A stretch of 43,617 nucleotides of DNA from an uncultured Anaerolineae bacterium (lineage in GTDB: Bacteria; Chloroflexota; Anaerolineae; Fen-1058), in NCBI GenBank assembly GCA_964354595.1, contig CAYHAR010000003.1:1-43617 (forward strand), given 5' to 3'. The position numbers and the translations under genes were made by a program. Of the stretch, positions 56 through 26,225 are shown piece after piece. Position 1 is the stretch's first letter. Every line of letters begins with the position of its first letter. Below the pieces are notes generated by a model, which worked only from the letters and a program-made list of their open reading frames with translations, had not been told where the DNA came from and did no database searches.

Positions 56-176
56 GTAACTACTCAGCCCGCTCGGCTTGGATTGCCAAATCCAAGCCAA
101 ATGCGATGAGGTCTGCTCAATTTTGCTTGCCGAACGGCCGGATTTGTCAATCCGGCGGGAGCGGCTGAGTAGTTAC
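56..176. mobile_element. MITE-like 121-bp non-coding element with terminal inverted repeats and an 8-bp target-site duplication
   Basis: GTAACTACTCAGCCCGCTC (56-74) is the reverse complement of GAGCGGCTGAGTAGTTAC (159-176) apart from one extra C. The perfect direct repeat CCTTTGGG flanks it at 48-55 and 177-184. The interior has two 8-bp-stem hairpins (77-96 and 137-156) and no ORF. Confidence 0.6.
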
Positions 177-712
177 CCTTTGGGAGCAATTATGACTCGC
201 ACCGCTAGTCCGTCCTTGTCTCCGCTCAGATCATTTTCAATTCCGCGCGGGTTAGCGATTCGCCCTTCTGGATCATAGACAAAGCAAACCAGCGTCCTGC
301 AATCAGGGTGCTGTTTATACTTTTGAATATCAACCATCAACTGTTCCCCCAATTCCCTTGCCCCCAAGCCACTCCGAGTCTTTTTTGCCTCGATAACTAT
401 TTGCTCTAACTTGAGAAGGAAATCCATTCGAGAACTTCCGCCCGCATAACTTGGCGTCCACTCTTGGGGCCTAATATCGTCGTGCTCCAAAGTTAGCAAG
501 GCATGCAGCAGATCTTGGACATCGTATTCATCTTCCACATGGAGAGTATCTCTATTGCTGTGTCTTGATCGCAATTGCCTTGCAACGAGGTGAAACCGAG
601 AGCATAGGCGCTCAAGCATCAACATTCGGCGTATGCGTTCGTGTAAGGCGCTTTTTGGTTGAAACGTTTCGCCTGCTATTCTGTAATTTTGACGCTTGCT
701 CATAATAATCAT
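173..712 (-). CDS. PD-(D/E)XK-fold nuclease-like protein (about 179 aa; start uncertain, ATG 712 or 703)
   Basis: The body of track ORF 173..838 shows the E / D / ExK pattern (EDEYDVQDLLHALL ... SRMDFLLKLEQIVIEAKKT). The first 42 codons of the track ORF overlap intron domains V-VI and are rejected. The stop TAA lies inside the MITE inverted repeat. G+C is lower than in the core genes. Confidence 0.5.
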   Translation of the reverse strand: MIIMSKRQNYRIAGETFQPKSALHERIRRMLMLERLCSRFHLVARQLRSRHSNRDTLHVEDEYDVQDLLHALLTLEHDDIRPQEWTPSYAGGSSRMDFLLKLEQIVIEAKKTRSGLGARELGEQLMVDIQKYKQHPDCRTLVCFVYDPEGRIANPRGIENDLSGDKDGLAVRVIIAPKG

Positions 713-740
713 CAATTCTGACTTTAGCGGCCCAACGGTT

Positions 741-1617
741 ATAGTCGGTAGAGGAATCCCTTCCCCCGCCGCTACTTCAGAACCGGACATGAGACTTTCG
801 CACTCATCCGGCTCCTTGCCACACGAGCCTTTTGCCATACAGGCACTCTATTGTGGACGATTGCTCGCCCACAGAGCTTGACACCCGCGCTCTTGGAGTT
901 GGACAGTGTCCGGTCTTCAGTACGCTTGCGCGCCTGCCATAAGACTCAGACTCCGCCTGCTCTGGTGTCCTCTCGTGCAGCAGCCCCACGTCAGCTTATC
1001 CGACGGCTTTCCCGTCGGCCTTTGCTTCTTGGGGTATCCTCCTCCGTCAAGGCATCCGGCCTGGTCGCCTTCTCCTGTCCAGCACCGCGCAGAGACCTCT
1101 CTCCGCTCGTCCGGTCTGCGAGAGAGCACCTGACGGGTTACACCGTTCCGTGTGCCCATTTTCCGTGACCGTAGGACGACACTCTACGCCGCGTCCCTCG
1201 CATCGAGTGGAGACCACGTGCCTTAATACCACGTGGCCGAATGGGGACGTTTCCCGTTTGGGCCTGCCGGTCAGCCGTTCGGCAGGTTATCAGTCACGAC
1301 GCTTACGTGCCTTTGTCGAACATCCTGTCCATAGTCACTTGCTGGGGGCGGTCACCGCATCCGGCTAGCAGTTTATCCCCTTTTCACCCTTGCACACCCA
1401 CGATTGAGAACCAGTCGCACGCAGTAGGGTGACACTTTCACTCCTCCACTTGGAGGATAGGAGTAGGTCATTCAGTTGGTAAGGCTGAATGGCCGCACCT
1501 ATTTGGACACACAGTTGTCAAAGTTCTGGTCAACCTGCCGAATAGGTTGACGCCAACTTTCCCGCTCATCCTCACGTCATCTACATTGCATGACGGTTTC
1601 GAGCGAACGGGTCGCAC
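741..1617 (-). mobile_element. ORF-less group II intron (self-splicing ribozyme RNA); 5' end well supported, 3' end approximate
   Basis: On the minus strand the RNA starts GUGCGAC at 1617. The 7 nt just upstream, CCUUAAU (1624-1618), are perfectly complementary to AUUAAGG in the loop of hairpin CCACGUG-GUAUUAAGG-CACGUGG (about 1214-1236), giving an IBS1-EBS1 pair. Canonical domain V is at 814-780. A domain VI-like hairpin at 771-746 has an unpaired A at 749, about 8 nt before a possible AU 3' end at 741. Many GNRA-capped hairpins occur only on this strand (GAAA, GCAA, GGGA). No ORF longer than 105 aa exists in any frame across about 900 nt. Confidence 0.7.
780..814 (-). other. Group II intron domain V (catalytic hairpin)
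   Basis: The sequence is GAGCCGGAUGAGUGCGAAAGUCUCAUGUCCGGUUC. The lower helix GAGCCGG/CCGGUUC contains the AGC triad and a G.U pair. A 2-nt 3' bulge (GU), the upper helix AUGAG/CUCAU and a GAAA tetraloop follow. This matches the consensus GAGCCGUAU...GAAA...AUACGGUUC. Confidence 0.8.
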
Positions 1618-1786
1618 ATTAAGGATTCGTGCGGCGCGGTGATAGCGTACCCGCCCGCGTCGCAACGCGCGACACGTCAGCTTGTGCACGCGGATAAAGC
1701 GGGCGTCGCGGTAGGACGGCCACGCGAAGCGGCCGCCCTCTCCCCGCCCAAGGCCCTGGCAATCTTTACCTTAACATGATGACTTG

Positions 1787-2140
1787 CTACATGCCCCTAT
1801 CGCGCAATGCTTGCTCCACCCCTCGCCTGATTTTTGCTTCTTCAGGATCTTTTGCCAGTGCACCAACCATTGCAATTCCTATCAGAGCAGCAAGCCCCAA
1901 TGCTGAGGAGAAATCGCCTCCCCCTTGTGCAGGCGCAGAGTTGGGCGAAATTGTCCTCATGACATTGGCTTTATGCACCCAGCCTCTCACTCCACTTGGT
2001 AGTTGAACTATGAAATGCTGTTCCCTCTCCTCAACCACTGGAAATTTATCTTCATCCTTAAATGTGTACACGGTTTCCCATTTACCATCAGGCAGGGGAA
2101 CTGCAACATTGACCTTCACAGTTCCATAGTGTTTGCGCAT
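1787..2140 (-). CDS. Hypothetical 117-aa protein: N-terminal SH3b-like segment, glycine-rich TM helix and charged tail
   Basis: Intact ORF in a lower-GC patch. It has the segment FIVQLPSGVRGWVHKANV, then GGGDFSSALGLAALIGIAMVGALA (glycine-zipper-like TM). It starts exactly where the methyltransferase reading frame loses similarity. Confidence 0.4.
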   Translation of the reverse strand: MRKHYGTVKVNVAVPLPDGKWETVYTFKDEDKFPVVEEREQHFIVQLPSGVRGWVHKANVMRTISPNSAPAQGGGDFSSALGLAALIGIAMVGALAKDPEEAKIRRGVEQALRDRGM

Positions 2141-3329
2141 TGAGCGCCTGATAGTTTTCGCTGTGCACTAGCCAGCCATCGAGAGCGGCGTCCAAATCGT
2201 CGAACAATGCCAGAATGTCCAGTTCCAAATCGGGCAAGTGGCGCGTGTCGAGCGGCAGGAATTGGTATTGTGCATGGACGGGCGCGCCGAGCAGGTCTTT
2301 TTCCAAGATTTTTCCCAACAGACCTTTAGGGTCTTTCGCCTTGTCGTCCACCATGCCCAAGTCCTGCCATTCCTGCACCTGGGCCTTGATGCCTTTGTGG
2401 GCAAAAATCTTTTTGAGCAGTTTGGGGTCTGTGATTTTGTCCAGCGTAATCACGTAATGGCTGTTGAGCACGAACTTGGGCTTGTTCCACACGCGCACCA
2501 ACTCATCTTCAAACTGGGCGATAAAGTCAATAATTTTGTAGGCAATGTCTTTGATGGCTTGCAATTGCTTCAAGCGCGCTTCGGTGAAATTGCTCTCGCC
2601 GCCAAAGACATATTGATACAACCACAGGTCAAACTGCTCTTTCAAAAAGGCTTGCGCGTTCTTGTTGATAAAGTAATCCACTTCGGATTGCTTTTCAAAG
2701 ACGCGGCAGGCGCGCTCTAATGTTTCTTCGTCCAGCGCGATGCCCGCTGTCGCGTCTTTCAGGGCGCGCCGGATGTCGTCGCTCTTGGTCTTGCGCCCCT
2801 TTTCAGAGTAGGCAACGGTCAAAATCACCTTGCCGCCTTTATACCCCTTGAACGTATAGGTCAACTCTCGCTTTTCATTGGCGCGCTTGTGCTCCAACTC
2901 TGCAACGTCAAAATAAAAGAGCGTGCCGTCCACCTCCACGTCCATGCTGTTGAACAGGCGGTCGGTCTTGACATAGTACAGCATGTGCGTCTTCCAGAAC
3001 AACATCACGTCGCGGTCATCGGTATAGACGCGCTCGTAAATGTTCTGGTGCAGGGCGGTGTGGCGAAAGTAAATCGAGCCGCTCTCGCTGAAATAGCGTT
3101 TGAAAAAGTCGTACAGTTTATCAAACAGCTCTTCGCGGAAAGATTTCTCGAACGGCTTGCAGGCCGCGTCAATGTCTTGCATCAACTGCGGAAAGACGCC
3201 CTGCTCGAAATAGCGGGCCTTGATTTTCATCAGGTTGATGTAACCTGAATCGCCCTCCACCTTTGCGCCGATGAAAATATCTTGCAGCGCGTCGAGGAAT
3301 TGCTGTTCGTAACGGTTGGTTTGCGGCAT
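2088..3329 (-). pseudogene. N-terminal fragment of a type III/IIG-style N6-adenine DNA methyltransferase, truncated near 2140
   Basis: The 413-aa ORF carries the N-terminal region typical of Mod/IIG-like methylases (DYFINKNAQAFLKEQFDLWLYQYVF). It ends at WLVHSENYQALN, the (G)DNxxxL segment that normally precedes the catalytic domain. After about 2140 it runs into unrelated sequence (AQTLWNCEGQCCSSPA, then stop). No DPPY/NPPY domain follows. Confidence 0.55.
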
Positions 3330-3404: not shown

Positions 3405-3602
3405 AAATGTCAAAAGGCGCGGGCTGAAGGTGGTTTGCGTCATGGCGGCTGCCTGTGGTGATCCTCACCTCATCCAAAGAGGAGCAAGACGTGGCGCAGA
3501 GCTATGACGTGCGCCAACAGCTATATTCGCAAGCCGGTTGACTTACAATTTGTGCTACAATTAGGCCTGTACTGGCTGGTTTTGATCGTACCGATGAATT
3601 GA
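3405..3602 (+). pseudogene. Remnant of a response-regulator receiver domain (C-terminal half, two frameshifts)
   Basis: Three frame segments read KARAEGGLRH / LPVVILTSSKEEQDVAQSYD / ANSYIRKPVDLQFVLQLGLYWLVLIVPMN, then stop. This matches the receiver motif ...hPVvvLTs...d...a..lGAnsYi.KPv....l...l..YW. The N-terminal half with the phospho-acceptor Asp is absent. Confidence 0.45.
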
Positions 3603-3750
3603 CCCTGCGCGGTTACGAGATCACTCGACAAGCGATTGCGCACTGGAGGCCTGAGCATCTGCTCCGGCGGCAGGTGCGGTCGGGCGAGAAACTTGAGTCG
3701 AAGGGATACGCCGCGCCAGCCATGGAGAGCCATTGAGAAACGAGGAATCT

Positions 3751-5010
3751 ATGCCCGCACAGAATAGACGCGTCGTCGTTACCGGCATGGGAGTGATCTC
3801 GCCGCTCGGGCTGGACGTTCCCACCCTGTGGGAAAACCTGATCGCGGGCCGCTCTGGCATCCGGCCAATTACGTCGTTTGATACCATTGACTTTGACGTG
3901 CGCATCGCAGGTGAGGTTCACGGCTTTGACCCGAACCGGTACATGTCTCCAAAAGAGGCCCGCCGGATTGACCGCTTTACCCAATTCGCTATAGCAGCCC
4001 TGGAAGAGACTCGCATGCAGAGCAAACTGGTTGTCCAGGAACATGACCCTTACGAGATCGGCGCAGTCGTCGGGTCGGGAGCCGGGGGCATCTGTACGTA
4101 TGGCGTCGGGTTCAATACTTTGCGCGAGAAAGGCCCGCGCCATTTGAGTCCCTTTCACGTGCCCGCCGTCAGTTCAGATGCGGCCGCGGTGCAAGTCGCA
4201 TTATGCACCGGCGCGCGTGGGCCAAACCATGGCGTGGCTTCAGCTTGTGCTACTGGCGCCGATGCGATTGGCGAAGCCTACGAGACGATTCTGCGCGGCC
4301 ACGCCAAGGCCATGTTCACTGGTGGCTTTGAGGCGGCGATCCAGCCGATTTGCATCGCCGCCATCACCTGCACTGGCGCGCTCTCGCGCCGCAACGACTC
4401 CCCAACATCCGCCTGCCGTCCCTTCGACGCTGATCGCGATGGATTCGTCGCCGCAGAAGGCGGGGCACTCTTGCTGCTGGAAGACCTGGAATTTGCCCTG
4501 GCGCGCGGCGCGCAGCCGCTGGTTGAGCTGGTGGGCTACGCCGCCACTTCTGACGCCATTCACCTCACTGCGCCCGACCCCGAGGGAGCCGGCGCGGCCT
4601 ATTGCATGGGCCTGGCGATGCAACGCGCTGGCATTGCGCCGCAACAAGTGTCTTACATCAACGCTCACGGCACGGCGACCCGGGCTGGCGATCCGGCCGA
4701 AACCCGGGCCATCAAGCGTGCCCTGGGCGAGTATGCCTATCGCGTGCCGGTCAGTTCGACCAAGTCAATGACAGGACACCTGATGAGTGGCGCTGGCGCG
4801 TTGGAAGCAGTGATTTGCATCCAGACTCTTCTGACTGGGGTGGTTCCGCCGACTATCAACCTGGAAACACCTGATCCCGACTGTGACCTGGACTATGTAC
4901 CCAACAAAGCTCGTTCGGCTGAACTGAACGTTGTCCTGTCCAACTCAATGGGGTTTGGTGGACACAATGCCACGTTAGTGTTCCAAGCTTTTCCAGCCCA
5001 AAATGCATAG
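3751..5010 (+). CDS. fabF: Beta-ketoacyl-ACP synthase II (KAS II, FabF-type)
   Basis: RRVVVTGMGVISPLG N-terminus. The Cys-His-His triad contexts are present: ASACATG, NAHGTAT, STKSMTGHLMSGAG. The ATG at 3751 follows GAGGAA; the track ORF starts at an upstream TTG at 3733. Confidence 0.9.
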   Translation: MPAQNRRVVVTGMGVISPLGLDVPTLWENLIAGRSGIRPITSFDTIDFDVRIAGEVHGFDPNRYMSPKEARRIDRFTQFAIAALEETRMQSKLVVQEHDPYEIGAVVGSGAGGICTYGVGFNTLREKGPRHLSPFHVPAVSSDAAAVQVALCTGARGPNHGVASACATGADAIGEAYETILRGHAKAMFTGGFEAAIQPICIAAITCTGALSRRNDSPTSACRPFDADRDGFVAAEGGALLLLEDLEFALARGAQPLVELVGYAATSDAIHLTAPDPEGAGAAYCMGLAMQRAGIAPQQVSYINAHGTATRAGDPAETRAIKRALGEYAYRVPVSSTKSMTGHLMSGAGALEAVICIQTLLTGVVPPTINLETPDPDCDLDYVPNKARSAELNVVLSNSMGFGGHNATLVFQAFPAQNA

Positions 5011-5019
5011 GAGAAAGAC

Positions 5020-6249
5020 ATGCCTCTCGACAAACGCAACCTGTACCGGTTCCCGTGGTCTATGAACGATAACCCCATCGCCTGGCTCGAAATCACCGAC
5101 ATCTGCAACATCCACTGCGAGGGATGCTATCGCCAACATGTCACCGGCCACAAGCCGCTCGAGCAGGTCAAGGACGAAATCCTCTTTTTCAAACGATGGC
5201 GCAACCCCGATAACGTCTCCATCGCGGGCGGCGAGCCGTTGATTCACCCGCAGATTGTAGACATTGTGGCCTTTATCGCGCAGAACGGCATCAAGCCCAT
5301 CATCCTGACGAACGCGATGACGCTCAAGCCCGACCTCTTGCAAGAGTTGAGAAAGGCTGGGCTGGCCGGCTTTACGATCCACGTTGACAGCCGTCAGAAC
5401 CGGCCCCACTGGAAGGACAAGACCGAGCGCGAGCTGAACGAGCTGCGCCAGCAGTGCGCCGACATGATCGCAGCCGAAGGCGGCATGTACGTCATCTTCA
5501 ATTCCACCGTTTACCCTTCCACCTTTCACGAGGTTCCCAATGTGGTGCAGTGGGGGCAGGCCAACATTGATAAGGTGCACGGCCTGGTCTTTATCACCTA
5601 CCGCACGGCGACGACCGACGTCAACATCGCGCGCGACTCGGCCGACCGGGAAGTAGATTTCGGCCAGCTCAGCTATGTCCGGGAGAGTTTCGACGAAGAG
5701 TTTGTCACCGCGCCCGAGGTGTATCAAATCATCAAGGACAACTGTCCCGAGTATCAACCTTCCGGCTACCTGGGTGGGAGTATCCGGCACGACTCTTACA
5801 AATGGCTGGCCGGGGCGTGCATCGGCTCCAAGAGAAGGGTGTATGGCTCGGTCGGTAAAAAGACCATGGAGTTGGCCCAGGCGGGGCATCACGTCTTGAA
5901 GGGCACTTATCTGGCTTACCTGTCTACGGCCAGCGTCGGACGCAAAGTATTCCTGCTTTGTCCGTGGGATGACACCTTGCGCGGGGCCGCGCGCAACTGG
6001 CTGAAAGACGTCGTGCAGCATCCAGTGCGGTGGTTTGATGGCCTCTATATTCAAAGCATCGCCATCATCCAGGCCCCGGACCTCTTGCCGGATGGCCGCG
6101 CCGATATGTGCGACAGTTGTCCCGACATGACGGTCTATGACGGCAGGTTGATCAACTCGTGTCGCATGGACGAGTATCGGTTGTTCGGCGGGTTCCTGTC
6201 TGTGGTGGCCCGCTCACCTCATCCAACTGATCATCAACTCCTCACTTGA
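5020..6249 (+). CDS. Radical SAM enzyme of unassigned subfamily, with a C-terminal Cys-rich tail
   Basis: CNIHCEGCY gives the CxxxCxxC motif, followed by IAGGEPLIHP. The C-terminus carries CDSCPD...NSC. A GGAGAAAG RBS sits 2 nt upstream of the ATG, and only 9 nt separate it from fabF. Confidence 0.85.
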   Translation: MPLDKRNLYRFPWSMNDNPIAWLEITDICNIHCEGCYRQHVTGHKPLEQVKDEILFFKRWRNPDNVSIAGGEPLIHPQIVDIVAFIAQNGIKPIILTNAMTLKPDLLQELRKAGLAGFTIHVDSRQNRPHWKDKTERELNELRQQCADMIAAEGGMYVIFNSTVYPSTFHEVPNVVQWGQANIDKVHGLVFITYRTATTDVNIARDSADREVDFGQLSYVRESFDEEFVTAPEVYQIIKDNCPEYQPSGYLGGSIRHDSYKWLAGACIGSKRRVYGSVGKKTMELAQAGHHVLKGTYLAYLSTASVGRKVFLLCPWDDTLRGAARNWLKDVVQHPVRWFDGLYIQSIAIIQAPDLLPDGRADMCDSCPDMTVYDGRLINSCRMDEYRLFGGFLSVVARSPHPTDHQLLT

Positions 6250-6308
6250 CCAATCCTTCAAGCCCGGCTACAATGGCCGCGTTAAACTCTCCACGAAAGG
6301 AAGCCACC

Positions 6309-7496
6309 ATGGACTTGTTCGACAAGTGCCGCAACTTTACCATCGCCCGGGAAGCAATAGCCGCCGGGATCTATCCGTATTTTACTACGCTCGACGATAA
6401 CAGCGAAGGCACCGAGGTCGTTATCCGCGGGCGCAAAGTCATCATGATCGGCTCCAACAACTACCTGGGACTGACGACCGACCCGCGCGTGCGCCAGGCG
6501 GCGATTGACGCCACCCAAAAGTATGGCACGAGTTGCACGGGCAGCCGCTTTCTCAACGGCACGCTCGAGCTGCACGTTGAAGCCGAGCGGCGACTGGCCA
6601 AGTTCGTCGGCAAGGAAGCTGCGCTGGTATTCTCGACCGGCATGCAAACCAACCTGGGCACGATCAGCGCACTGGTGGACAAGGGCGACGTGGTCATCAT
6701 TGACAAAGAGGACCACGCCAGCATCGTGGATGGCTGCCGGCTGGCCCTGGGCACAATGAAGCGCTTTATCCACAACGATATGGCCTCACTGGAAAAAGTG
6801 CTGCAATCTTGCCCGGATAGCGTAGGCAAGCTCGTCGTGGTGGATGGCATCTTTTCGATGGGCGGTGACATTGCGCCACTCCCCGAAATCGCCCAGCTGT
6901 GCAAAAAATATGGTGCACACTTGATGGTGGACGACGCTCATTCCCTCGGCGTATTGGGCGACCACGGGCGCGGCACGGCGAATCACTTTGGCCTGACCGA
7001 CCAGGTGGACCTCATCATGGGCACGTTTAGTAAGTCGTTCGCGTCGCTGGGCGGGTTCATCGCGGGAGACGACGTGGTCATGCACTATGTCCAGCATCAC
7101 GCGCGCAGTTTCATGTTCAGCGCCTCGATACCGGCGGCGAACGTGGCTGCTGCCCTGGCTGCGCTGGACATCATGGAGCACGAGCCGGAGCGCATCGAGC
7201 GGCTGTGGCACAACACCCGCAAGATGGCAGCCGGATTCAAGGCATTGGGCTTTAATATCGGCGAGAGCACGACGCCAGTCATTCCGATCTATATCGGCGA
7301 AGACATGAAGGCCGTCTTTGCGTGGAATGCGCTCTTCCAGGCGGGCGTGTACACCAACACGGTCCTCCCGCCGGCCGTCCCGCCCAACAAGTCGCTGCTG
7401 CGCACCAGCTACATGGCGACGCACACCGACGAGCAACTGGATCGCGTGCTCGAGATCTTTAGAAAGGTCGGCAAGGAATTGGGGCTGATCGGGTGA
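6309..7496 (+). CDS. PLP-dependent alpha-oxoamine synthase, serine palmitoyltransferase-like
   Basis: SNNYLGL, FSTGMQTNLGTISAL, DKEDHASIVDGC and GTFSKSFASLGGF (PLP-lysine) follow the bacterial Spt pattern (FSTGyxaNLG, DxxsHASIxDGC, GTFSKS) more closely than the KBL/BioF pattern (GTLGKA / GTFGKG). The ATG at 6309 has an AAGGAAG RBS; the track ORF begins at TTG 6246. Confidence 0.8.
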   Translation: MDLFDKCRNFTIAREAIAAGIYPYFTTLDDNSEGTEVVIRGRKVIMIGSNNYLGLTTDPRVRQAAIDATQKYGTSCTGSRFLNGTLELHVEAERRLAKFVGKEAALVFSTGMQTNLGTISALVDKGDVVIIDKEDHASIVDGCRLALGTMKRFIHNDMASLEKVLQSCPDSVGKLVVVDGIFSMGGDIAPLPEIAQLCKKYGAHLMVDDAHSLGVLGDHGRGTANHFGLTDQVDLIMGTFSKSFASLGGFIAGDDVVMHYVQHHARSFMFSASIPAANVAAALAALDIMEHEPERIERLWHNTRKMAAGFKALGFNIGESTTPVIPIYIGEDMKAVFAWNALFQAGVYTNTVLPPAVPPNKSLLRTSYMATHTDEQLDRVLEIFRKVGKELGLIG

Positions 7497-7531
7497 CAAA
7501 TTTCAAATTTCAAATGTCAAATCTCAAATTC
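7497..7531. repeat. Heptanucleotide tandem array, 5 x CAAATNT
   Basis: The units are CAAATTT CAAATTT CAAATGT CAAATCT CAAATTC. The array starts right after the stop codon at 7494-7496 and spans the start codon of the lipoprotein gene. Confidence 0.85.
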
Positions 7532-8116
7532 ACGTGGTGGGTTGTTGTGATGGCGATGTTGGTTGGATGCGCTGCGCCGCAACCGACGGTATTGCCTCCT
7601 ACAGTTGCCCCTTCGGCCACGCCCGTGGTGACGTGGACGCCGGCGCCAACCGTCGCGCCGGCCGGGCCCGCGGCGACGTGGACGCCCGTGGCGACGCTTG
7701 CGCCGCAGGCTTATCTTGAAGCCATGCGCGAGGCGGCCTCGGCGATGCGCCTGGCGACCAAGACGCTGGAACACACAGACATTGTGCTGACTCGCCACCT
7801 CACCGACACGGTCCCTTCGCGCGAAGTGTTGAGCCTGGCGTCGAGCGATGGCCGCATTGTCCGGATGATGGGCGAGTCGTTGCGGCAATATCAGGGGCGC
7901 GGTTTGTTCACGCCAGCGCTGACCGATGCCCTCGCCGCGCTCGACTCGGCAGATGCTACTTTTCGCATGATCGCGAGCGGCAGCGGAGATCCCCTCGAGA
8001 TGCTGCTCGCTATCCAGGATGCAGAGGTGCAGCTTTTGATGGCGAGGCAAGATTTTCGGGACGAGTTGATCGCCCATGGCGTGCCAGAGGCGCAGGCGGA
8101 TGAGCTGGTGCGTTGA
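7514..8116 (+). CDS. Putative lipoprotein, function unknown
   Basis: MSNLKFTWWVVVMAMLVGC has a signal peptide and an L-V-G-C lipobox. A Pro/Thr/Ala-rich linker and a helical domain follow. Start is either ATG 7514 or upstream at 7493. Confidence 0.6.
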   Translation: MSNLKFTWWVVVMAMLVGCAAPQPTVLPPTVAPSATPVVTWTPAPTVAPAGPAATWTPVATLAPQAYLEAMREAASAMRLATKTLEHTDIVLTRHLTDTVPSREVLSLASSDGRIVRMMGESLRQYQGRGLFTPALTDALAALDSADATFRMIASGSGDPLEMLLAIQDAEVQLLMARQDFRDELIAHGVPEAQADELVR

Positions 8117-8513: not shown

Positions 8514-9188
8514 CTACTTGGCCGGTACCGCGTACTGGAATTCACCAACTGGCGTGTGCGCCGGGGCGACGATGCGGTCGCGCCGCTGGACGCTGACGCG
8601 CAGTCCTTCGCGGCTGTTGGAAAAGACCGCCAGCAGGCCGCCTGGGCGCAACAGCGCGGCCTCTAGCGCGGCCGGGTCTCCGATGGCGACAAAGATGTGC
8701 GGCGGACGAGCGACTGCGCCATCTACGGCAATGCTCCCATCCGCCATCGGCGCGATGACCGACGACGCGACGATGCGCCGACCGTTGAGCGCAATCGCTT
8801 CGGCCCCGGCGTTGCGCAGCTCGTTGATCAGGTCGTGCAAGTCCAACACAGTGACCGGGCCATCCAATGTCCCTTGCACGCCCGGTCCCACTACGGCAAC
8901 CGCCCCGTCGAGCATCTTTAGCCGCTCCAGTTCATCCAGCATCGTTTGCAGGCGAGCCTGGTTGGTCGCGCTGCGATAGCTCGCCATCTGCGCGTCCAGT
9001 TCGGCGACCTCTTGGCGCAGCCGCGTGTTGCCTTCCACCAGGTTGCTGATGAGCAGCACTCCATCCGCGCCCAAAGCCGCTGCGCGCTTGAGGTCCATGC
9101 GTTGCTGCGTGGTGAGTTGCGCCATCACCAAAAAACCCAGGAGAAAGGCGACCAGAGTGATCGAGATTAGAGATGCTCGCGTGTTCAT
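8514..9188 (-). CDS. DUF881-family membrane-anchored protein (YlxW/YlxX-like)
   Basis: N-terminal TM helix, a coiled-coil segment and the DLHDLINELRNAGAEAIALNGRRIV signature. Confidence 0.8.
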   Translation of the reverse strand: MNTRASLISITLVAFLLGFLVMAQLTTQQRMDLKRAAALGADGVLLISNLVEGNTRLRQEVAELDAQMASYRSATNQARLQTMLDELERLKMLDGAVAVVGPGVQGTLDGPVTVLDLHDLINELRNAGAEAIALNGRRIVASSVIAPMADGSIAVDGAVARPPHIFVAIGDPAALEAALLRPGGLLAVFSNSREGLRVSVQRRDRIVAPAHTPVGEFQYAVPAK

Positions 9189-9198
9189 CAGAATATCG

Positions 9199-9945
9199 CT
9201 ACTGGGAACTGCAATGCCTCACCGAAAATCCACCGGTGTATGCTGGCAGCGTCAGCTTGGGCGCCGGCGCGACTTGAAACTTTATTCCATAGCGTTCCAC
9301 TTTTTGGCGAAGGGCGGTGAGGTACGAAGGATTGCGCAGCGTCTCGGCCAGGCTGGCTGGCTCGCCGATGGCGCGCACGACGTAGGGCGGCGAAAGCCGG
9401 GTGGTGTTGACCATCACTGTGCTGCCCACGCAATAGGCTGAGGTGTTGCCGACGACGCGCTCGTCGTTGACGGCAATCGCTTCCGCGCCGGCCAGCCATA
9501 GCACGTTGATCACGTCGCGCAGATCGTAATCGTGAACGAGAAAGGCGTTGGGGTCAGGTGAGGTGGAAATGTTTCTCGCGCCGCTATCGTCCAGCGACAC
9601 CACGATGCCCGGTCCGCGCATGGCGGTCAACCCGGCGGCGGCTCGCTGTGCGTCGAGGTCGGCGTTGAGTCGTTGCAAGCGGTCCGTCTCGGCGGCGGCG
9701 TGAGCCTGGTAATTCGCCAGGTCGGTGCGCAGGCGGCCGATCTCGGCTTTGAGTGCGGCCTGTTCGGCTTCCAGTTGCTCGATCGTGCGGACAGAGCGGT
9801 CGCGCGGGTCGCCGGGCGCATAGCCGACCGGCGGCGAGGCGCGCGGGCCTTTGAGTTGCCAGGCCAGCGCTAGGCCGATCACCATCGCGATCAACGTCAA
9901 GGTCAAGTTGGGCCGTCGAGCGAGTTGTTGCCTCATCGCCCTCAA
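9199..9945 (-). CDS. DUF881-family membrane-anchored protein (paralogue)
   Basis: N-terminal TM helix, a coiled coil (EQLEAEQAALKAEIGRLRTDLANYQ) and DLRDVINVLWLAGAEAIAVNDERVV. Confidence 0.8.
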   Translation of the reverse strand: MRAMRQQLARRPNLTLTLIAMVIGLALAWQLKGPRASPPVGYAPGDPRDRSVRTIEQLEAEQAALKAEIGRLRTDLANYQAHAAAETDRLQRLNADLDAQRAAAGLTAMRGPGIVVSLDDSGARNISTSPDPNAFLVHDYDLRDVINVLWLAGAEAIAVNDERVVGNTSAYCVGSTVMVNTTRLSPPYVVRAIGEPASLAETLRNPSYLTALRQKVERYGIKFQVAPAPKLTLPAYTGGFSVRHCSSQ

Positions 9946-10301: not shown

Positions 10302-12419
10302 TCATCGCCTCACGGTAATCTCTTGCAGCATCAGCCGGTCGCCGCGCGGCGTCATCCCATCGTACACCGTCAACCGGTGATGCGTAGGGCCGGCGTACCA
10401 GCCCACCGAGAGCCGATACTTGCCGGGCGGCGTGCCATCGGGAATCGTGAGGTTGTAAAGTTGCGCAAACACATCGCCGCTTTGCAGCGTGTCATAGAGC
10501 ATCGCCTGCCGGTCGTGCTGCGCCACCACTTGCCTGGGATCGCTCAACAAGTGCATGAACCCGACCAGAAACATGGGCGGCGGCTTGCGCGCGCGCCAGT
10601 ACGTCAGCACGCGAAGGTCTTTGCCAGCCTGCCGCTGTGCGCGCTCTACACGATAACCCAGGAACTCGATCGTATGATCGAAATCGGCCGGGAGCGGCGC
10701 TGCGCCGGTCGCGCCTGCTTCGGGACTCCACTCGACTTGAGAGGTCTGTGTCAATGAGACGATCTCGGCGAGCGGGCGCGCGGCGTCCAACATGTAGAGC
10801 GTCCCCTCGGAGAGCAGATCGTCGTGGGTGGGCGCGCTCCAATCCATCCACGGCAAGAGCGCGTCATCCAACATGGACGAATTAAAATCAAGCAGCATGA
10901 GCCGGGCGCGTGCGCCGGAGGGAATGACGAACGAATCACGGCAATCGAACCAGCGAATGGGCAAATCAGTCCGCCGCAAAACGAAAGGAAACGTCTGGCG
11001 CGGCGAGCGGAAAAAGTCTTCGTACTCGTTGAGGAAGGCGCTGCACGCCACGACCGGCGTCGCGTCGGCGCGCTGGTCGAGGTAGCGCGCTGCCTCGGCG
11101 ACGACGGCTTGATGATAGAATCGCACCTCGTCATTGTTCGCCCATTCGACAAAGTAGCCGGAATAATTCCACGCCGCAAAGCCGAGCCACCATACCGCCA
11201 GTGCCGTATAGCCCAACCCTTTGAGCCAGGCTAGGGGTGTACGCTTCAAAAGCGTTATCAGCTCAACCGCGCCCAGCCCGACGAAAGCGTAGGCCACTAT
11301 TTGCGCCGCGACGGTGCGCGTAAAATGCGGCGTGGGCGCGCTCAACATGCCGGGCGAAAGGCTCACGACGAGCCAGATCAACGCAAACGAGTTTTGGGGG
11401 CGACGCCATCGCCACACGGCCAGGCCGGCTCCGACAAGGAACAGAATGGCTCCGACCGGATCGAACACCGGTCTCCCGGCGACGTTGTATTGCCATTGCG
11501 GATCGCCGCGCCAGGTGAACATGCCCAACGTGGCGAGCGTCGTTTGAAGAGCAGACGTCGGGCGGCCCGCGGCGAGGTCTTGCAGCGAGTTGCTGAGCAT
11601 GTTGAAGCGCAGGTTCTCTGCCGGGTGCGCGTTGAGATAGAGCACGAGTGGCGCGGCCACGAGCGCCGCTGCTGCGAGGAACGCTGCCAGCCCCGGCAGC
11701 AGTCTTTTCCATTCGGCATGGCGCGTCAGCCCAAAATACGCCGCGAAAGCGAGGAAAGCCAACACCATGGGCCGCGCGCTGAGATAGCCATAGATCGAAA
11801 GCCCCAGCAGCACGCCAGAAAAAATAAACTTTGTCCCTTGCGTTCGCCTGTCCCCTTTAGGGAATGGCGTCTTTGCGGCGAAGCCTGACCACGCATCCCA
11901 GAACGCGCAGGCCGAGAGCGCCAACACGGGGACAATCGTGCCCGCGCGCAGTCCCGTGCGTCCGAGCAAGACCGACCAGAAGGATACTGCCTGTACCGCT
12001 GTCGCGATCAGCGCCACGTTGCGCCCGAACAATCGCCGCGCCAGCGCATAACACGCGGCCACGCCGAGCAGCCCCCACATCACATCGGGAAAGCGCATCC
12101 CCAGGGCGTTGCGCCCAATAGTTTGCAGCGAAACTGCCAGCGTGACGTGATACAGCCAGCCATGCTCTTGCAAATCGGGGCCATTCGGATTGGCTTGAAT
12201 TGTGAGCCAGGGAATGACGGGAGCGGCCGGACGCAACCACTCGGGCAACGCAGGCAGAATAAACTCGTCCACGATCTGCCCGTCGATGATTGCGTCAAAG
12301 TGCGGGCCAGGCGGAACGGCATCGAGCCGGTATGTGCGAAACCACGCCACTATCAACAACGCGACCATCGCTGCGGCCCATTGATATTTAACGTTTGACG
12401 TTTGACGTTTGAGATTCAT
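10302..12419 (-). CDS. GT-C fold (family 39/ArnT-PMT-like) membrane glycosyltransferase with a large C-terminal extracytoplasmic domain
   Basis: 705 aa. The N-terminal ~450 aa are polytopic and the C-terminal ~250 aa are soluble. Its ATG overlaps the upstream stop as ATGA at 12416-12419. Confidence 0.7.
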   Translation of the reverse strand: MNLKRQTSNVKYQWAAAMVALLIVAWFRTYRLDAVPPGPHFDAIIDGQIVDEFILPALPEWLRPAAPVIPWLTIQANPNGPDLQEHGWLYHVTLAVSLQTIGRNALGMRFPDVMWGLLGVAACYALARRLFGRNVALIATAVQAVSFWSVLLGRTGLRAGTIVPVLALSACAFWDAWSGFAAKTPFPKGDRRTQGTKFIFSGVLLGLSIYGYLSARPMVLAFLAFAAYFGLTRHAEWKRLLPGLAAFLAAAALVAAPLVLYLNAHPAENLRFNMLSNSLQDLAAGRPTSALQTTLATLGMFTWRGDPQWQYNVAGRPVFDPVGAILFLVGAGLAVWRWRRPQNSFALIWLVVSLSPGMLSAPTPHFTRTVAAQIVAYAFVGLGAVELITLLKRTPLAWLKGLGYTALAVWWLGFAAWNYSGYFVEWANNDEVRFYHQAVVAEAARYLDQRADATPVVACSAFLNEYEDFFRSPRQTFPFVLRRTDLPIRWFDCRDSFVIPSGARARLMLLDFNSSMLDDALLPWMDWSAPTHDDLLSEGTLYMLDAARPLAEIVSLTQTSQVEWSPEAGATGAAPLPADFDHTIEFLGYRVERAQRQAGKDLRVLTYWRARKPPPMFLVGFMHLLSDPRQVVAQHDRQAMLYDTLQSGDVFAQLYNLTIPDGTPPGKYRLSVGWYAGPTHHRLTVYDGMTPRGDRLMLQEITVRR
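12381..12415. repeat. Heptanucleotide tandem array, 5 x TTGACGT-like (TCAAACG in the coding direction)
   Basis: The units are TTGATAT TTAACGT TTGACGT TTGACGT TTGAGAT. The array encodes codons 2-13 of the 705-aa GT-C protein (MNLKRQTSNVKYQ). Confidence 0.8.
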
Positions 12420-13540
12420 TTGGGCATCGCGCGCAGCGCGTCATACGCGGGACGGACACGCATCTCGGCATACTCGGGGTAATTGATGGCCCACCAGTAT
12501 TGCTCGTCGTCCGGGGTGATGGCCGGATTTGCCATCGAAAGCGCAATCATCGGCCCGATCCACGGCGACCAGTTGCGCTTGGCGTACTGGTACGCTCGCA
12601 CAAGATAATCGGCTTGCTGCTCTTCGGTGACGGCGTGCCAGGTATAATCCGGGTTAACCAAGTCGGTCGTCCAACCGAATTCCAAGACGGCGACTTGCTT
12701 GTTGGCATCGCCATAGCGTTCCATGATCTTGCGAATGTCCTCGACGTGGCGGAAGCAGAAAAAGCGATTGCCGTTGTATTTGGCGGCAGCTTCATCAGGC
12801 GGAGTCTCGGGTGGCTCTTTGTAGCCTGCCGCGTGGACGCCGAGTAAATCAAAGTACGGCGCGGCTCCGGCCTGGTACATTTTCTCGATGAATACATCGT
12901 CGGGCATAGCCTCCGGCGGGCCGCTGCCGGTGGGTGACATGCCCGCCGAGATGACCAGCGCTCCCGGGTCAGCGGCCTTGATGCCGATGTAGCATACTTT
13001 GAGTAGCTCCACATACCGCGCCGGGTCCGGCGGCTGGTTGCCCCACTCGCGCGCCAGGTTCGGCTCGTTCCACACCTGGTAAGCGCGGATCTTGCCGCCA
13101 TAGTGTTCTGCCAACGCATGGCAAAAGTCGCCGAAATCTTGCAGGTTTTTCGGTGGCGCATTCTCCAACGGCTCGGTATCGGGAGCCTGCGCCCAGAACG
13201 GCTGATGGTCAATCCGCAAGATCAAATTGAGCTGGGTGTGACGGACTGCGCGAACCATCCGATCGGTGCGCGTCCAATCGTACTTGCCTTTCTCCAACCC
13301 TTCCACGTCGCGCCAGGCCACCGCTTGCTTGACCCAGGTAAAGCCCATGTTCTGAATGAGCACCAAGGCGCGGTCGGCGGATTCCCAGTCCCAATACAGA
13401 AAAGCCTGGATGCCGTACTCGGGCGAAGCCAGCCGCGCGCGCGGCCATGACGTCGGCGTGGGCGGCGCGGTGGGCTTCGGGCGCGTCGGGTTGCACGCGG
13501 CGAGGAGAATCAGCAAGAGTGCAAGTTGGCGTAAGCGCAT
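12416..13540 (-). CDS. Secreted/lipoprotein clan GH-A (GH5/GH39-like) glycoside hydrolase
   Basis: Signal peptide with lipobox (LLAAC). The motif YQVWNEPNL is the NEP acid/base signature of (beta/alpha)8 clan-A hydrolases. Confidence 0.7.
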   Translation of the reverse strand: MRLRQLALLLILLAACNPTRPKPTAPPTPTSWPRARLASPEYGIQAFLYWDWESADRALVLIQNMGFTWVKQAVAWRDVEGLEKGKYDWTRTDRMVRAVRHTQLNLILRIDHQPFWAQAPDTEPLENAPPKNLQDFGDFCHALAEHYGGKIRAYQVWNEPNLAREWGNQPPDPARYVELLKVCYIGIKAADPGALVISAGMSPTGSGPPEAMPDDVFIEKMYQAGAAPYFDLLGVHAAGYKEPPETPPDEAAAKYNGNRFFCFRHVEDIRKIMERYGDANKQVAVLEFGWTTDLVNPDYTWHAVTEEQQADYLVRAYQYAKRNWSPWIGPMIALSMANPAITPDDEQYWWAINYPEYAEMRVRPAYDALRAMPK

Positions 13541-21055: not shown

Positions 21056-22003
21056 TCAGCTACGATCGGTATACCACTGGATGGTGTGGCGCAGGCCGTC
21101 ACGCCATTCGACTTGGGGCTGATAATCCAAAACCTGTTTTGCTTGGTCAATAGCGGCCATCGAATGTTTCACGTCGCCCGCTCGCGCCGGAGCAAACACG
21201 GGTCGCAGCGCTGTGCCTATCAGCGCCGTCAGGTCGCGATACAGGTCGAGCAATGTGCGCCGATCCCCGCAAGCAATATTCACTACTTTTCCGATCGCGT
21301 CGTTTTTCTCACACGCCAACAAATTAGCCTGTACCACATTTGCCACATAGACAAAATCACGCGACTGTGTGCCATCACCATAGATCGTCGGCGGCTCGCC
21401 GCGCAAGAGGGCCGCGATAAACTTGGGGATCGCCGCTGCATATTGCGAGTTGGGATCTTGACGTGGGCCGAACACGTTAAAGTAGCGCAAGCATACTGTG
21501 GGCAGACCATAAGCTGCGTAGAACATTCGGCAATATGCCTCGCCAGCCAGCTTGGATGCAGCGTACGGAGAAAGAGGCCTGGGGGCGGCAGTTTCTTTGA
21601 GTGGCAAATCGTCATTGTCGCCATATACGGCAGCCGAACTGGCTAACACAACGCGCTTCGCGCCGGCCTCGCGCGCGGCCAGCAGCACATTCAGTGTACC
21701 GGTCGCATTCATTTCGTGCGCCATCAGTGGGTCTGCCATGGACTGCGCCACGCTGACCAACGCTGCATGATGCAGTATATAGTCTACGCCGCTTGTTGCT
21801 TGCCGCACCGCGTCTAGGTCGCGAACGTCTCCCTCCACCACTTCCAAGTTGGGCACTTGTGCGTGATTCTGGAACTGAAGGTTCTCCCGCTTGCCTGACG
21901 AAAAATTGTCCAGCACGCGTACGCGCTCGCGGCGTTCGAGCAGCATCTCGACAATGTGCGAGCCGATGAACCCGGCTCCGCCTGTCACCAAGTAAGCAGC
22001 CAT
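21056..22003 (-). CDS. NAD-dependent UDP-sugar 4-epimerase (WbpP/TviC-like SDR)
   Basis: VTGGAGFIGSH Rossmann motif, SPYAASK (YxxxK), YFNVFGPRQ and YAAAIPKFI. Confidence 0.85.
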   Translation of the reverse strand: MAAYLVTGGAGFIGSHIVEMLLERRERVRVLDNFSSGKRENLQFQNHAQVPNLEVVEGDVRDLDAVRQATSGVDYILHHAALVSVAQSMADPLMAHEMNATGTLNVLLAAREAGAKRVVLASSAAVYGDNDDLPLKETAAPRPLSPYAASKLAGEAYCRMFYAAYGLPTVCLRYFNVFGPRQDPNSQYAAAIPKFIAALLRGEPPTIYGDGTQSRDFVYVANVVQANLLACEKNDAIGKVVNIACGDRRTLLDLYRDLTALIGTALRPVFAPARAGDVKHSMAAIDQAKQVLDYQPQVEWRDGLRHTIQWYTDRS

Positions 22004-23835: not shown

Positions 23836-24816
23836 TCAAACGGACTGGCGGGCTGCTCTGAATTGCGCGATTACTTGATCGAGCGTCTCATCCAGTGAGA
23901 TGGTGGGCTGCCAGCCGACGGTTGCCTTGATTTTTTGTGTGTCAGGCACCCGGCGACGCATGTCCTCAAAGCCGTCCTCGTAGGCCCGATCGTAAGGAAC
24001 CAGCTTGATTTCCGAGCGGCTGCCCGACCTTGCCAAGACACGCCGGGCCAGGTCGAGAATGGTGATCTCTTCGTGGCTGCCCACGTTAAAAATCTCCCCG
24101 ACTGCGCGCGGCTCGGAGGCGAGCGCAAGTACGGCTCGCACAGTGTCTTGGACGTTGCAAAAGCAACGGCTTTGCTGGCCGTCGCCATAGACGGTCAACG
24201 GCTGGCTGGCCAACGCCTGCTGAACGAGGCGGGGAATGACCATGCCATACATTCCAGTCTGGCGCGGGCCGACGGTGTTGAAAAAGCGGCAGATGATTAC
24301 CGGCGTCTCGAACTGTTTGTGATACGCCAGCGCCAGAAACTCGTCCATTGCCTTGGACTCGGCATAGCACCAGCGGCTCTTGGTGGTCGGCCCCATCACG
24401 CGGTCGGCGTCCTCGTGGAACGGAATCTCGTCGCTCTTGCCATACACTTCGGAAGAGGAGGCGAGCAGGATTTTTTTGCGATAGCGCAGAGCGAGTCGCA
24501 GTATTGTCTCCGTGCCGCGCAGATTGGTCTCGATAGTTTGAATCGGGTCTCGGACAATCAATTCCACGCCGACCACCGCTGCCAGGTGATAAATCACGTC
24601 GCACTCGCTCACTAGCCGATCCATCACGGTCTCGTTGAGAATGGTTTCGCGGACAAAGTGGAACTGAGGATGACTCGTCAGCCCGGCAATGTTCTCGATC
24701 CGCCCGGTGGAGAGATCGTCTACTGCAACCACGCGCTGTCCTTGAGCCAACAAGGCTTCAGCCAAATGACTGCCGATAAAACCTGCGCCGCCGGTGATGA
24801 GAGCTTGAGTGGTCAT
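23836..24816 (-). CDS. NAD-dependent sugar-nucleotide epimerase/dehydratase (UXS/ArnA-C-terminal-like SDR)
   Basis: ITGGAGFIGSH, YAESK and CRFFNTVGPRQ. The ATG at 24816 shares one base with the upstream TGA (TGATG). Confidence 0.85.
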   Translation of the reverse strand: MTTQALITGGAGFIGSHLAEALLAQGQRVVAVDDLSTGRIENIAGLTSHPQFHFVRETILNETVMDRLVSECDVIYHLAAVVGVELIVRDPIQTIETNLRGTETILRLALRYRKKILLASSSEVYGKSDEIPFHEDADRVMGPTTKSRWCYAESKAMDEFLALAYHKQFETPVIICRFFNTVGPRQTGMYGMVIPRLVQQALASQPLTVYGDGQQSRCFCNVQDTVRAVLALASEPRAVGEIFNVGSHEEITILDLARRVLARSGSRSEIKLVPYDRAYEDGFEDMRRRVPDTQKIKATVGWQPTISLDETLDQVIAQFRAARQSV

Positions 24817-26225
24817 CAATACGCCCCTTTGCCGCGGATGACCACGCCCAGCGTCATCCACAAGATTTTCAAGTCGAGCCACAGCGAATAGTTGCGGATG
24901 TAGTAGAGATCATACTGCGTGTTCAGATGCATGGGGAGGTCGCTGCGCCCGCTCACCTGCCACCAGCCCGTGATGCCCGGCGGGACGGCCAGCCGCTGGC
25001 GCTGCCACGGCTCGTAATGGGCGGCGATGAACTCTTGCTCCGGGCGCGGACCGACCAGGCTCATCTCGCCGCGCAGCACGTTGACGAGTTGCGGCAATTC
25101 GTCCAGGCTCGTCCGCCGCAACAAGCGACCCACGCGCGTGACGCGCGGATCGTTTGGACGCTTGTAAACCGGGTGCCCCACCTCATCCGTAGCGACTACC
25201 GATTCCGCCAACTGGTCCGCGCCTTGCACCATCGTGCGAAATTTCAGCGTCCAAAACTCTTTGCAATTCTCTCCCACGCGCCGCTGGCGAAAGATGGCCG
25301 GGCCGGGGCTATCGAGCTTGATGGCAATGGCGAGGAGCAGCAGCACCGGCCACAGCAGCGCCAGCGCCAGCGCGCTCAAGACCACGTCGGTCGCCCGCTT
25401 GATGGCCCAGTTCGCGCCGTCAATCACCGGCTCGCGCACGCCGATGAGCGGCACTGGGCCGAGCATCTCGACGCTGGCGCGCACCAGCGCCAGCTTGAGC
25501 AGGTCGGGCGCAACGCGCACGCGCACCGGCAGCGAGTGAAGATCGTACACCACGCGCTCGATCTGGTCGTATTGCGACGAGGGCAACGTGATGACCACTT
25601 CGTCGCAGCCGAACTCGCGCACCAGTCGGGCTGTATCGGCCACGCGGCCCAACACGGGCAAGCCGGTCAGCGCGTCGGCGGGCAGCTCATCGTCCACAAA
25701 ACCCAACACGGTGAGCACCGGCCCCAAGTCGCGCGCAATGGCGGCGGCTACCTCCACGCCCGGCTCGCCCGCGCCGACGATGAGCACCTGGCCGGGGCGC
25801 ATCTTTTGTCGCAGCAAGCGCAGCGCCGTCACGCCCGCCACGCGCAGGAGCGTCAAAAGCGCCCAATCCAGCGCGGCAAAGTAGATCACGAGCAGGCGCG
25901 AGACTTCACGAAACGAAAAATACAACGCGCCAGCCAGCACCAGGATGGCTACCGGCATCGCCTTGCTCATCCGGCGCACCTGGGTCGCAATGTTCATTGC
26001 CCCTTGCGATTCATAGACGCCGAGCACCTGGAACACGGGTGTCCACACGAGCGCGACGATAGCGTAGACGAGCGGGCTGAGCACGTCGCCGGAGCCGAGC
26101 GTCTTACCTGGCAGTAGGGGCCGCAGCGCTTCGGCCAGCGCAAGCGCGACCATCGTCGCGGCGAGGTCGGCGGCGGAAAGCAAAGCCAGGAATCGGCGGA
26201 ATCGTCTAAACATCTCTGCGACCAA
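24816..26225 (-). CDS. Polyprenyl-phosphate hexose-1-phosphate transferase (WbaP/WcaJ-type priming enzyme)
   Basis: N-terminal TM helices, a central Rossmann-like segment ([10 protein letters not shown]), and a C-terminal Bac_transf core ([12 protein letters not shown]...[21 protein letters not shown]). Confidence 0.9.

Follow-up and report, generated by a model that had tools for sequence, protein, structure and literature searches.

The closest characterised relative of the enzyme family described here is Tes (GDGT-MAS), an archaeal lipid tail-coupling enzyme built from four domains: a rubredoxin-like one, an N-terminal [4Fe-4S] domain, a radical S-adenosylmethionine (SAM) core and a C-terminal [4Fe-4S] domain, whose cluster has three Cys and one Met as ligands and takes up the first radical formed on the substrate (2026 review, PMC13459092). 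A bacterial radical SAM enzyme that is likewise remote from Tes, Mss (Tmari_0825 of Thermotoga maritima; WP_129545148.1 of Thermoanaerobacter ethanolicus), is reported to have homologues in Chloroflexi, the FCB group and deltaproteobacteria (PMC13159169). Genes resembling that for bacterial serine palmitoyltransferase (Spt) have been placed in 218 Chloroflexota metagenome-assembled genomes (MAGs) in work on Black Sea metagenomes, in which ceramides correlated with Anaerolineae and the genes for bCerS and CerR were often not adjacent to the Spt-like genes (Ding et al., PMC11334938). Here we describe a 43,617-nucleotide stretch of DNA from an uncultured Anaerolineae bacterium (GenBank contig CAYHAR010000003.1, positions 1 to 43,617; hereafter the window, meaning the whole stretch analysed), in which genes for a condensing enzyme (FabF), a radical SAM protein and an alpha-oxoamine synthase (AOS) follow one another:

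3751..5010, plus strand: fabF, beta-ketoacyl-ACP synthase II (KAS II; ACP, acyl carrier protein), from an ATG start; the longest open reading frame (ORF) begins at TTG 3733
5020..6249, plus strand: radical SAM gene, 409 amino acids, from the ORF list and PF04055
6246..6274, plus strand: promoter-like element TTGACC-17 nt-TACAAT, overlapping the radical SAM stop codon, upstream of the AOS start
6309..7496, plus strand: Spt-like AOS gene, 395 amino acids, start set from homologue lengths and a DNA alignment

The first-pass annotation had read these genes as a compact operon and a candidate pathway for an unusual long-chain amino-lipid. All three do appear to be lipid-related, and every motif quoted for FabF, the radical SAM protein and AOS was found in the translated genes; a dedicated three-gene amino-lipid pathway is not supported by conservation. 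The reading we prefer, and to which we give about even weight, is that these genes form a loosely linked island for membrane lipids that came together recently, as opposed to an old operon of three enzymes or a pathway dedicated to an amino-lipid. The trio is a recent, lineage-specific juxtaposition, yet not a random one, in view of three independent pairwise links among relatives: FabF with the radical SAM protein, AOS with FabF, and the radical SAM protein near an Spt cluster. What is new here is a minimal Tes-like radical SAM family with a conserved nitroreductase partner, among the Anaerolineae and Chloroflexota relatives retrieved.

Gene neighbourhoods of the radical SAM family

A single scan of genomes, a single scan of metagenomes and direct look-ups of contigs gave 165 loci (numbered with an L below) with relatives of the radical SAM gene at 60-100% identity, and the flanks of these loci were searched with the window proteins and with proteins of the relatives. 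Flanking sequence was adequate downstream at 123 loci and upstream at 117. A nitroreductase-family gene lies directly downstream of the radical SAM gene at 68 of the 123 loci and occurs in every identity bin below 95%. AOS follows it at two of the 123, both with 100% radical SAM identity and thus in the bin of at least 95%, and FabF lies directly upstream at five of 117, all with at least 85% protein identity and forming a sub-clade. None of the 68 nitroreductase loci has AOS or FabF within 6-7 kb, and unsupervised clustering of the flanking ORFs yielded no further strongly recurrent neighbour. A lack of conservation of the trio as a neighbourhood, which the first-pass annotation had named as an outcome that would refute its hypothesis, is what these counts show: all three genes together are confined to contigs that share at least 93% DNA identity with the window. 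The contigs that carry the radical SAM-AOS junction (L086, L092, L093 and L097) are 93.5-99% identical to the window DNA, which places them in the same narrow lineage.

Slightly more distant relatives preserve other arrangements. L094 (89%) has the order FabF-radical SAM-nitroreductase, an intermediate state, and L082 and L083 (87%) have TetR-patatin-FabF-radical SAM, an order that is also intact in L093. In L084, L085 and L095 (86-87%), TetR-patatin-radical SAM is followed directly by a 56-residue ORF matching the start of the nitroreductase (L084, 3098-3268; L085, 4791-4961; L095, from about 4790); in L084, where the flank is long enough, a DegV gene comes next. The 56-residue ORF looks like a decayed remnant, as though the nitroreductase partner had been lost in several close lineages that kept the radical SAM gene. 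The AOS orthologues in L087 (91%) and L088 (78%) are solitary, monocistronic genes with unrelated neighbours. In a separate observation, L021 and L022 are two oppositely oriented radical SAM copies on a single 49.8-kb contig (DAOTVS010000047.1), separated by about 30 kb and each about 70% identical to that of the window. A nitroreductase gene in L173 was considered as an orthologue of the radical SAM partner and set aside at only 24% identity.

The junctions of the locus suggest how the arrangement arose. FabF and the radical SAM gene are separated by 9 bp, in keeping with the tight plus-strand spacing described at first. The second gap calls for a correction. The longest AOS ORF (6246-7496) opens at TTG 6246, the start given by the first-pass annotation; AOS homologues are 391-395 residues long, and the sequence ATGGACTTGTTCGA at ATG 6309 is kept in four other loci in the DNA alignment, so that the gene probably starts at 6309. 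The spacer between the radical SAM gene and AOS is then 59 bp instead of a 4-bp overlap. At this junction lies the sigma-70-like element at 6246-6274, which matches the consensus at 10 of 12 positions in a consensus scan and has a near-identical counterpart (CTTGACCAATC...GGCTACAATG) upstream of the solitary L087 AOS. Because the element is common to the window and to this solitary gene, AOS was apparently brought in together with its promoter region, displacing the nitroreductase gene. A compact operon of three genes is accordingly doubtful, as AOS has a conserved promoter-like element of its own. Conserved radical SAM sequence stops at '...FGGFLSVVAR', about residue 399, and the last ten or so residues vary between lineages; a rearrangement near these last codons appears to have put AOS where the nitroreductase gene normally sits, in the narrow lineage of the window.

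A second event appears to have put a degraded restriction-modification island in the place of the upstream TetR-patatin genes. The flanking features are these:

2088..3329, minus strand: truncated type III methyltransferase fragment (PADLOC MTase_III, 486 bits), the left boundary of the locus
3581..3652, plus strand: remnant of 24 codons from the 3' end of a patatin-like phospholipase gene, found by tblastn with the L084 patatin
7493..8116, plus strand: small predicted lipoprotein-like ORF (contains LVGC), overlapping the AOS stop codon by 4 bp

From window position 3589, inside the patatin remnant, the window and L093 are homologous; the remnant matches residues 255-278 of the L084 patatin at 62.5% identity (E 3e-4, tblastn). 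The methyltransferase fragment covers only positions 2-394 of the 816 in the MTase_III profile, that is, its N-terminal half; a gene with a DpnII/MboI-type endonuclease domain lies at 173-838 on the minus strand, also upstream of FabF, and the GC content falls to 0.53-0.55 across 173-3329. This segment looks like a degraded restriction-modification or defence island standing in place of the TetR-patatin genes of relatives. On the other side, the lipoprotein-like ORF had no family match in Pfam, NCBIfam or PADLOC scans and accompanies AOS only in the window's own lineage (synteny in L086, L092 and L097). Beyond it, two adjacent DUF881 genes on the minus strand (8514-9945) are likewise syntenic with AOS only in that lineage, and in L086 a zinc-ribbon ORF precedes them. 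The remainder of the window includes these DUF881 genes and a long cell-envelope glycan cluster.

The radical SAM protein and its resemblance to Tes

The description of a 409-residue radical SAM protein with a CNIHCEGC motif and a C-terminal Cys cluster proved accurate in both motif positions and PF04055 match (59.8 bits against a gathering threshold of 29.5). Its cysteines are arranged as C29-x3-C33-x2-C36, within CNIHCEGC at residues 29-36, and C364-x2-C367-x13-C381. In an alignment of 46 sequences reaching down to 24% identity, CxxxCxxC and C381 are invariant and C364 and C367 are present in at least 90%. The C-terminal 209 residues have no Pfam family match, and with three conserved C-terminal Cys as opposed to about seven or eight, the protein falls outside the SPASM/twitch type.

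A cluster database at 90% identity holds 1,901 relatives, of which the top 120 are at least 72% identical, and only 154 of the 50%-identity clusters fall below E 1e-30. Across the genome loci retrieved, mostly Anaerolineae and other Chloroflexota MAGs, the protein is 60-84% identical; its best genome match, at 84%, is a Thermoflexales MAG, and the closest relatives of all three proteins of the trio are metagenome-assembled Chloroflexota, mostly of the class Anaerolineae. The family is thus well conserved among the relatives retrieved and, to our knowledge, has never been characterised.

Profile and fold comparisons both lead to Tes. Against NCBIfam the protein gave core-level matches only, the best being Tes (NF045702) at 53.8 bits against a cut-off of 450, over profile positions 87-265 of 486. 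The family profile matched 7TOL (Tes/GDGT-MAS) with 85.6 bits (E 3e-23), the next match being PqqE at 50 bits. An AlphaFold2 model built from the alignment has a mean predicted local confidence (pLDDT) of 94.2 and a predicted TM-score (pTM) of 0.92, and in a Foldseek search of the PDB with this model, 7TOM and 7TOL rank first, with about 440 aligned columns and query-normalised TM-scores of 0.54-0.57; the remaining matches cover only the radical SAM core, about 250 columns, with TM-scores of about 0.39 or lower. The analogy with lipid-tail chemistry drawn at the outset is in keeping with this, in that the nearest characterised relative by profile and by fold is a tail-coupling enzyme.

As in Tes, the radical SAM core leads into a C-terminal domain that keeps three Cys, here candidate ligands of an auxiliary cluster. 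Unlike Tes, whose PDB chains have 493-526 residues, it is a 409-residue bacterial protein with a nitroreductase as its usual partner, and it begins about 20 residues ahead of the radical SAM motif, its alignment to Tes opening at chain residue 109; of the four domains of Tes, the rubredoxin-like one and that of the N-terminal cluster are both missing. On these sequence and model comparisons it resembles Tes and falls outside Tes membership. Mss is similar in being bacterial and remote from Tes, and its reported taxonomic spread overlaps that of the family described here, a comparison made by description only (PMC13159169). For Mss homologues the authors of that work require E <= 1e-50 and identity >= 30%. 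Among 20 family representatives looked up, there were no names from Thermotogae or Clostridia; the organism names given were those of a Polyangiaceae MAG and of Carboxylicivirga marina only.

The Spt-like synthase, FabF and their links in relatives

FabF itself is ordinary. It scores 549.2 bits on TIGR03150, a whole-protein equivalog model with a cut-off of 493.75, matches both PF00109 and PF02801 and has a complete catalytic triad of Cys165 (ACATG), His304 (NAHGT) and His341 (TGHL). Score and motif positions agree with the initial call of a complete FabF-type condensing enzyme with its Cys-His-His triad, and by these measures the protein is a canonical KAS II.

AOS, a protein of the class-II aminotransferase fold, carries the motifs FSTGMQTNLG, DKEDHASIVDGC and GTFSKSFASLGGF, and its pyridoxal phosphate (PLP)-binding lysine is K242 (numbered from the start at 6309). 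As shown by model scores, it belongs to an Spt-like branch of the alpha-oxoamine synthases rather than to a curated Spt equivalog. Its top NCBIfam model is NF047600 (Spt, CFB type), with 549 bits against a cut-off of 640; NF047599 (447 against 500) and NF047603 (372 against 670) are also not reached, and the protein is therefore best termed Spt-like. The Spt models are still its top-ranked families. KBL (NF005394; 364.7 bits against 460) and BioF (TIGR00858; 389.5 against 426.45) are lower and below their own cut-offs. The same order is seen in the PDB, where Sphingobacterium multivorum SPT (3A2B, 8GUH) scores 431 bits, other bacterial SPT entries (2X8U, 2JG2 and related) 320-328, a bifunctional BioF/KBL (7POA, 8S1Y) 305, cysteate acyltransferase 268, KBL 244 and BioF 205. 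The claim that AOS is closer to Spt than to KBL or BioF is thus upheld by both collections. A reading of the locus as biotin synthesis by BioF and BioB was dropped, the radical SAM protein having no match to a biotin synthase model and AOS lying under the BioF cut-off.

AOS and the CFB-type SPT of S. multivorum are 51% identical over 385 residues, and 15 of the 18 active-site and substrate-pocket residues listed in PMC10196870, which names the residues contacting PLP-L-serine in that enzyme, are the same in both. Those kept include the PLP lysine and nearly all PLP-L-serine contacts (Asn52, Tyr54, Gly80, Ser81, His138, Ser185, Asp210, His213, Thr241, Ser243, Lys244, Met271, Ser273 and Ala274), many of which are also common to other alpha-oxoamine synthases. 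The two differ near the active site by three substitutions in AOS (Ala79 to Thr, Phe114 to Met and Ser53 to Asn), besides the score under the NF047600 cut-off. The Spt-like branch is widespread in Anaerolineae, and a published phylogeny places Chloroflexota homologues within the Spt-like clade (PMC11334938). Given that report, an Spt-like gene in Anaerolineae was already known, and the AOS of the window is a new member of the published group.

Neither a radical SAM nor a FabF partner belongs to the scheme of Spt, bCerS and CerR, and the window's AOS fits the Black Sea pattern in which bCerS and CerR are often not adjacent (PMC11334938). The first-pass annotation had stated that the ceramide partners are lacking. 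For most of them the searches made agree with this: a tblastn search of the window with the GNAT candidate for bCerS from L004 gave no match, and a six-frame regular-expression scan, a motif-level test only, detected no ACP or AMP-binding motifs of the kind expected of an acyl-ACP synthetase. CerR was judged less directly, by comparison with the CerR-candidate epimerase of L004, which matches one window epimerase at only 28% identity and is not a direct test of CerR; the only epimerase-family genes in the window (21056-22003 and 23836-24882) lie inside the sugar/glycan cluster. A 374-residue window protein (12416-13540) was considered as a counterpart of the 374-residue L004 GNAT and rejected, there being no similarity between them. 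The glycan cluster itself is a long minus-strand array (10302-12419 and 26236-41862) in which paralogous GT-C membrane glycosyltransferases, about 400-600 residues in length, follow one another (several PMT_2, one GT87), together with a UDP-GlcNAc 2-epimerase, a DegT aminotransferase, epimerases/dehydratases and a Bac_transf priming transferase; the AT skew on the plus strand across it is about +0.2.

Searches of the window recovered no sphingolipid genes associated with AOS; in relatives, candidates for such genes occur beside a homologue in L173 and in L004. These and two more distant contexts are as follows:

L173, 3901-7251: short-chain dehydrogenase/reductase (SDR), Spt-like AOS and FabF in tight succession, beside a phage-type integrase and small mobile-element ORFs
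L004, 9971-15079: convergent cluster of MMPL transporter, Spt-like AOS, 374-residue GNAT-like protein and epimerase-family reductase
L091, 390-8263: two HGD-D genes, two BcrAD_BadFG genes and a zinc-type alcohol dehydrogenase, then a radical SAM homologue of 46% identity; TetR-flanked, Polyangiaceae
L089, 2445-10086: radical SAM homologue of 32% identity, two B12-binding radical SAM genes, a 943-residue class-III aminotransferase fusion, an SDR and a GNAT-like gene; Carboxylicivirga marina

In L173, AOS (65% identical to that of the window) stands between the SDR and a FabF 77% identical to that of the window. The SDR aligns with a human 3-ketodihydrosphingosine reductase (KDSR) sequence at 171 bits and 37% identity, a lead only, as that sequence is approximate; against the PDB no SDR exceeds 135 bits, and the NCBIfam and PDB matches are generic, with TSC10 at 86 bits among hundreds. 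The cluster is a probable one for long-chain-base synthesis, and its SDR-AOS-FabF order lends independent support to the proposed lipid link between AOS and FabF. The L004 AOS is 53% identical to that of the window and scores 597 bits on the Spt-CFB model, and the run in which it stands is the pattern that would be expected for Spt, bCerS and CerR. This cluster begins about 1.8 kb downstream of a radical SAM gene of 77% identity, with the Spt gene itself about 3.9 kb away. The L004 contig is labelled Terriglobia, although its radical SAM gene is of the Anaerolineae type.

Homologues of the L004 GNAT also lie near the radical SAM gene in L054, in a context of sugar/polysaccharide genes, and in L089. 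The separate HGD-D and BcrAD genes of L091 together resemble the Pfam domain set of the PlsA/Ger ether-lipid enzymes (PMC13159169), and the L089 genes look like an uncharacterised biosynthetic cluster; the contexts of the distant homologues in L089 and L090 are uninformative or resemble another pathway. Lipid context near the radical SAM gene is thus recurrent and far from universal: the nearest clade has patatin, FabF, TetR and DegV, L004 has its Spt cluster, and L091 has the PlsA/Ger-like genes. By a rough estimate for a genome of 4-5 Mb, a single-copy gene would fall within 7 kb of the radical SAM gene by chance in about 0.3-0.5 cases across some 100-170 loci; two independent cases were seen, an excess that is suggestive at best.

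Alternative readings and significance

Formation of a 3-keto long-chain base is the first step of sphingolipid synthesis. In the gene island that we favour, FabF would extend acyl-ACPs and AOS would join serine, or another small amino acid like it, to an acyl-thioester, giving a 3-keto long-chain base, so that FabF and the Spt-like AOS together would feed long-chain-base synthesis. The radical SAM protein may remove a hydrogen at an unactivated carbon in the alkyl chain of a lipid, with an auxiliary Fe-S cluster on its three C-terminal Cys holding the radical as in Tes, and with C-C coupling or another tail modification as the outcome; the nitroreductase-family flavoprotein with which it usually occurs could, where present, contribute electrons or a subsequent redox step with flavin. 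That the alkyl chain of a lipid undergoes radical chemistry is suggested here by remote homology and gene context. The three products would act on the same lipid pool, and the radical SAM protein would not be specific to the sphingoid pathway.

Several points weigh against this picture. We infer the radical SAM substrate in its entirety, and the whole scheme is drawn from sequence and models. The similarity to Tes is remote, at 13-14% identity with a root-mean-square deviation above 9 Å, besides the score far under the Tes cut-off and the two missing domains. Most radical SAM loci have no lipid gene within 6-7 kb, and the strongly conserved nitroreductase partner is not a known lipid enzyme. 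The AOS-centred contexts comprise five loci only and the FabF-centred ones two, the KDSR comparison relies on an approximate sequence, and the promoter-like element is a consensus match plus conservation, which leaves room for read-through from FabF and the radical SAM gene into AOS.

A tighter coupling of the three genes would make them one dedicated pathway, in which the radical SAM protein works on the chain of a sphingoid-type base, or on the acyl-ACP that precedes the base, and by modification or coupling gives an unusual long-chain amino-lipid. The genes do lie close together on a single strand, the radical SAM protein is Tes-like, and the links of FabF with the radical SAM gene (in the sub-clade), of AOS with FabF (L173) and of the radical SAM gene with the L004 Spt cluster, including two close-linkage cases above the rough chance expectation, would fit. 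We nevertheless consider such a pathway quite unlikely, since AOS follows the radical SAM gene only within the window's own lineage, the place it occupies there belongs at 68 of 123 loci to a nitroreductase whose surroundings within 6-7 kb hold neither AOS nor FabF, AOS orthologues at 91% and 78% are monocistronic, and the AOS of the window has a conserved promoter-like element of its own. The opposite view is a more serious rival, though still one that we regard as the less probable course: the radical SAM protein and the nitroreductase may act on a non-lipid substrate (a cofactor, small metabolite, peptide or nucleic acid), with the proximity of FabF and AOS incidental. The nitroreductase is the sole strongly conserved neighbour, the level of identity across genome loci suits a housekeeping role, neighbours at most loci are unrelated, and the C-terminal half has no curated family match. 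Yet the best profile and fold match is a lipid enzyme and spans the whole chain, not the core alone, and lipid genes recur near the radical SAM gene in different arrangements (patatin, FabF, DegV, the Spt cluster and the PlsA/Ger-like genes).

A further doubt concerns AOS, which might be a housekeeping KBL/BioF-type or broad-specificity enzyme, like the BioF/KBL of Thermus, instead of a sphingoid-base synthase. Its scores below every curated Spt cut-off, its wide conservation as a usually solitary gene, the name 8-amino-7-oxononanoate synthase given to it in source databases and the 305-bit PDB match to an 8-amino-7-oxononanoate synthase/2-amino-3-ketobutyrate CoA ligase, which we take to be from Thermus, all lean that way. 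Spt models and structures score far higher than those of KBL and BioF, however, and the identity to a characterised SPT with its substrate-contacting residues kept, the linkage to a KDSR-like SDR in L173 and to GNAT, epimerase and MMPL genes in L004, and the place of Chloroflexota homologues in the published Spt-like clade (PMC11334938) make this view very improbable.

Anaerolineae rank with the most abundant bacteria of anoxic sediments, of digesters and of deep stratified waters, and little is known of their membrane lipids. Published metagenomics suggests that they make sphingolipids (PMC11334938); to this the window adds a radical SAM family, a candidate for lipid modification, with good conservation in the relatives retrieved. 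A far-reaching version, which we regard as improbable and in which Mss is compared by description only, is that this family is a third, minimal type of lipid-tail radical enzyme beside Tes and Mss, which in Anaerolineae couples or cross-links alkyl chains, possibly those of acyl-ACPs or long-chain bases from the linked FabF and Spt. If so, Anaerolineae would be producers of membrane-spanning or very-long-chain (sphingo)lipids, and the gene would be a genetic marker for orphan sedimentary lipids, for example the branched glycerol dialkyl glycerol tetraethers (brGDGTs) of anoxic zones or the long fatty acids of Black Sea 1-deoxyceramides, which reach C39 (PMC11334938). If the radical SAM protein does not modify lipid tails, the trio would be a chance juxtaposition and the finding an ordinary one. 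If it does, it would offer a gene marker tying environmental lipid biomarkers to their producers, and radical C-H activation on lipids could be studied in a simpler system than Tes.

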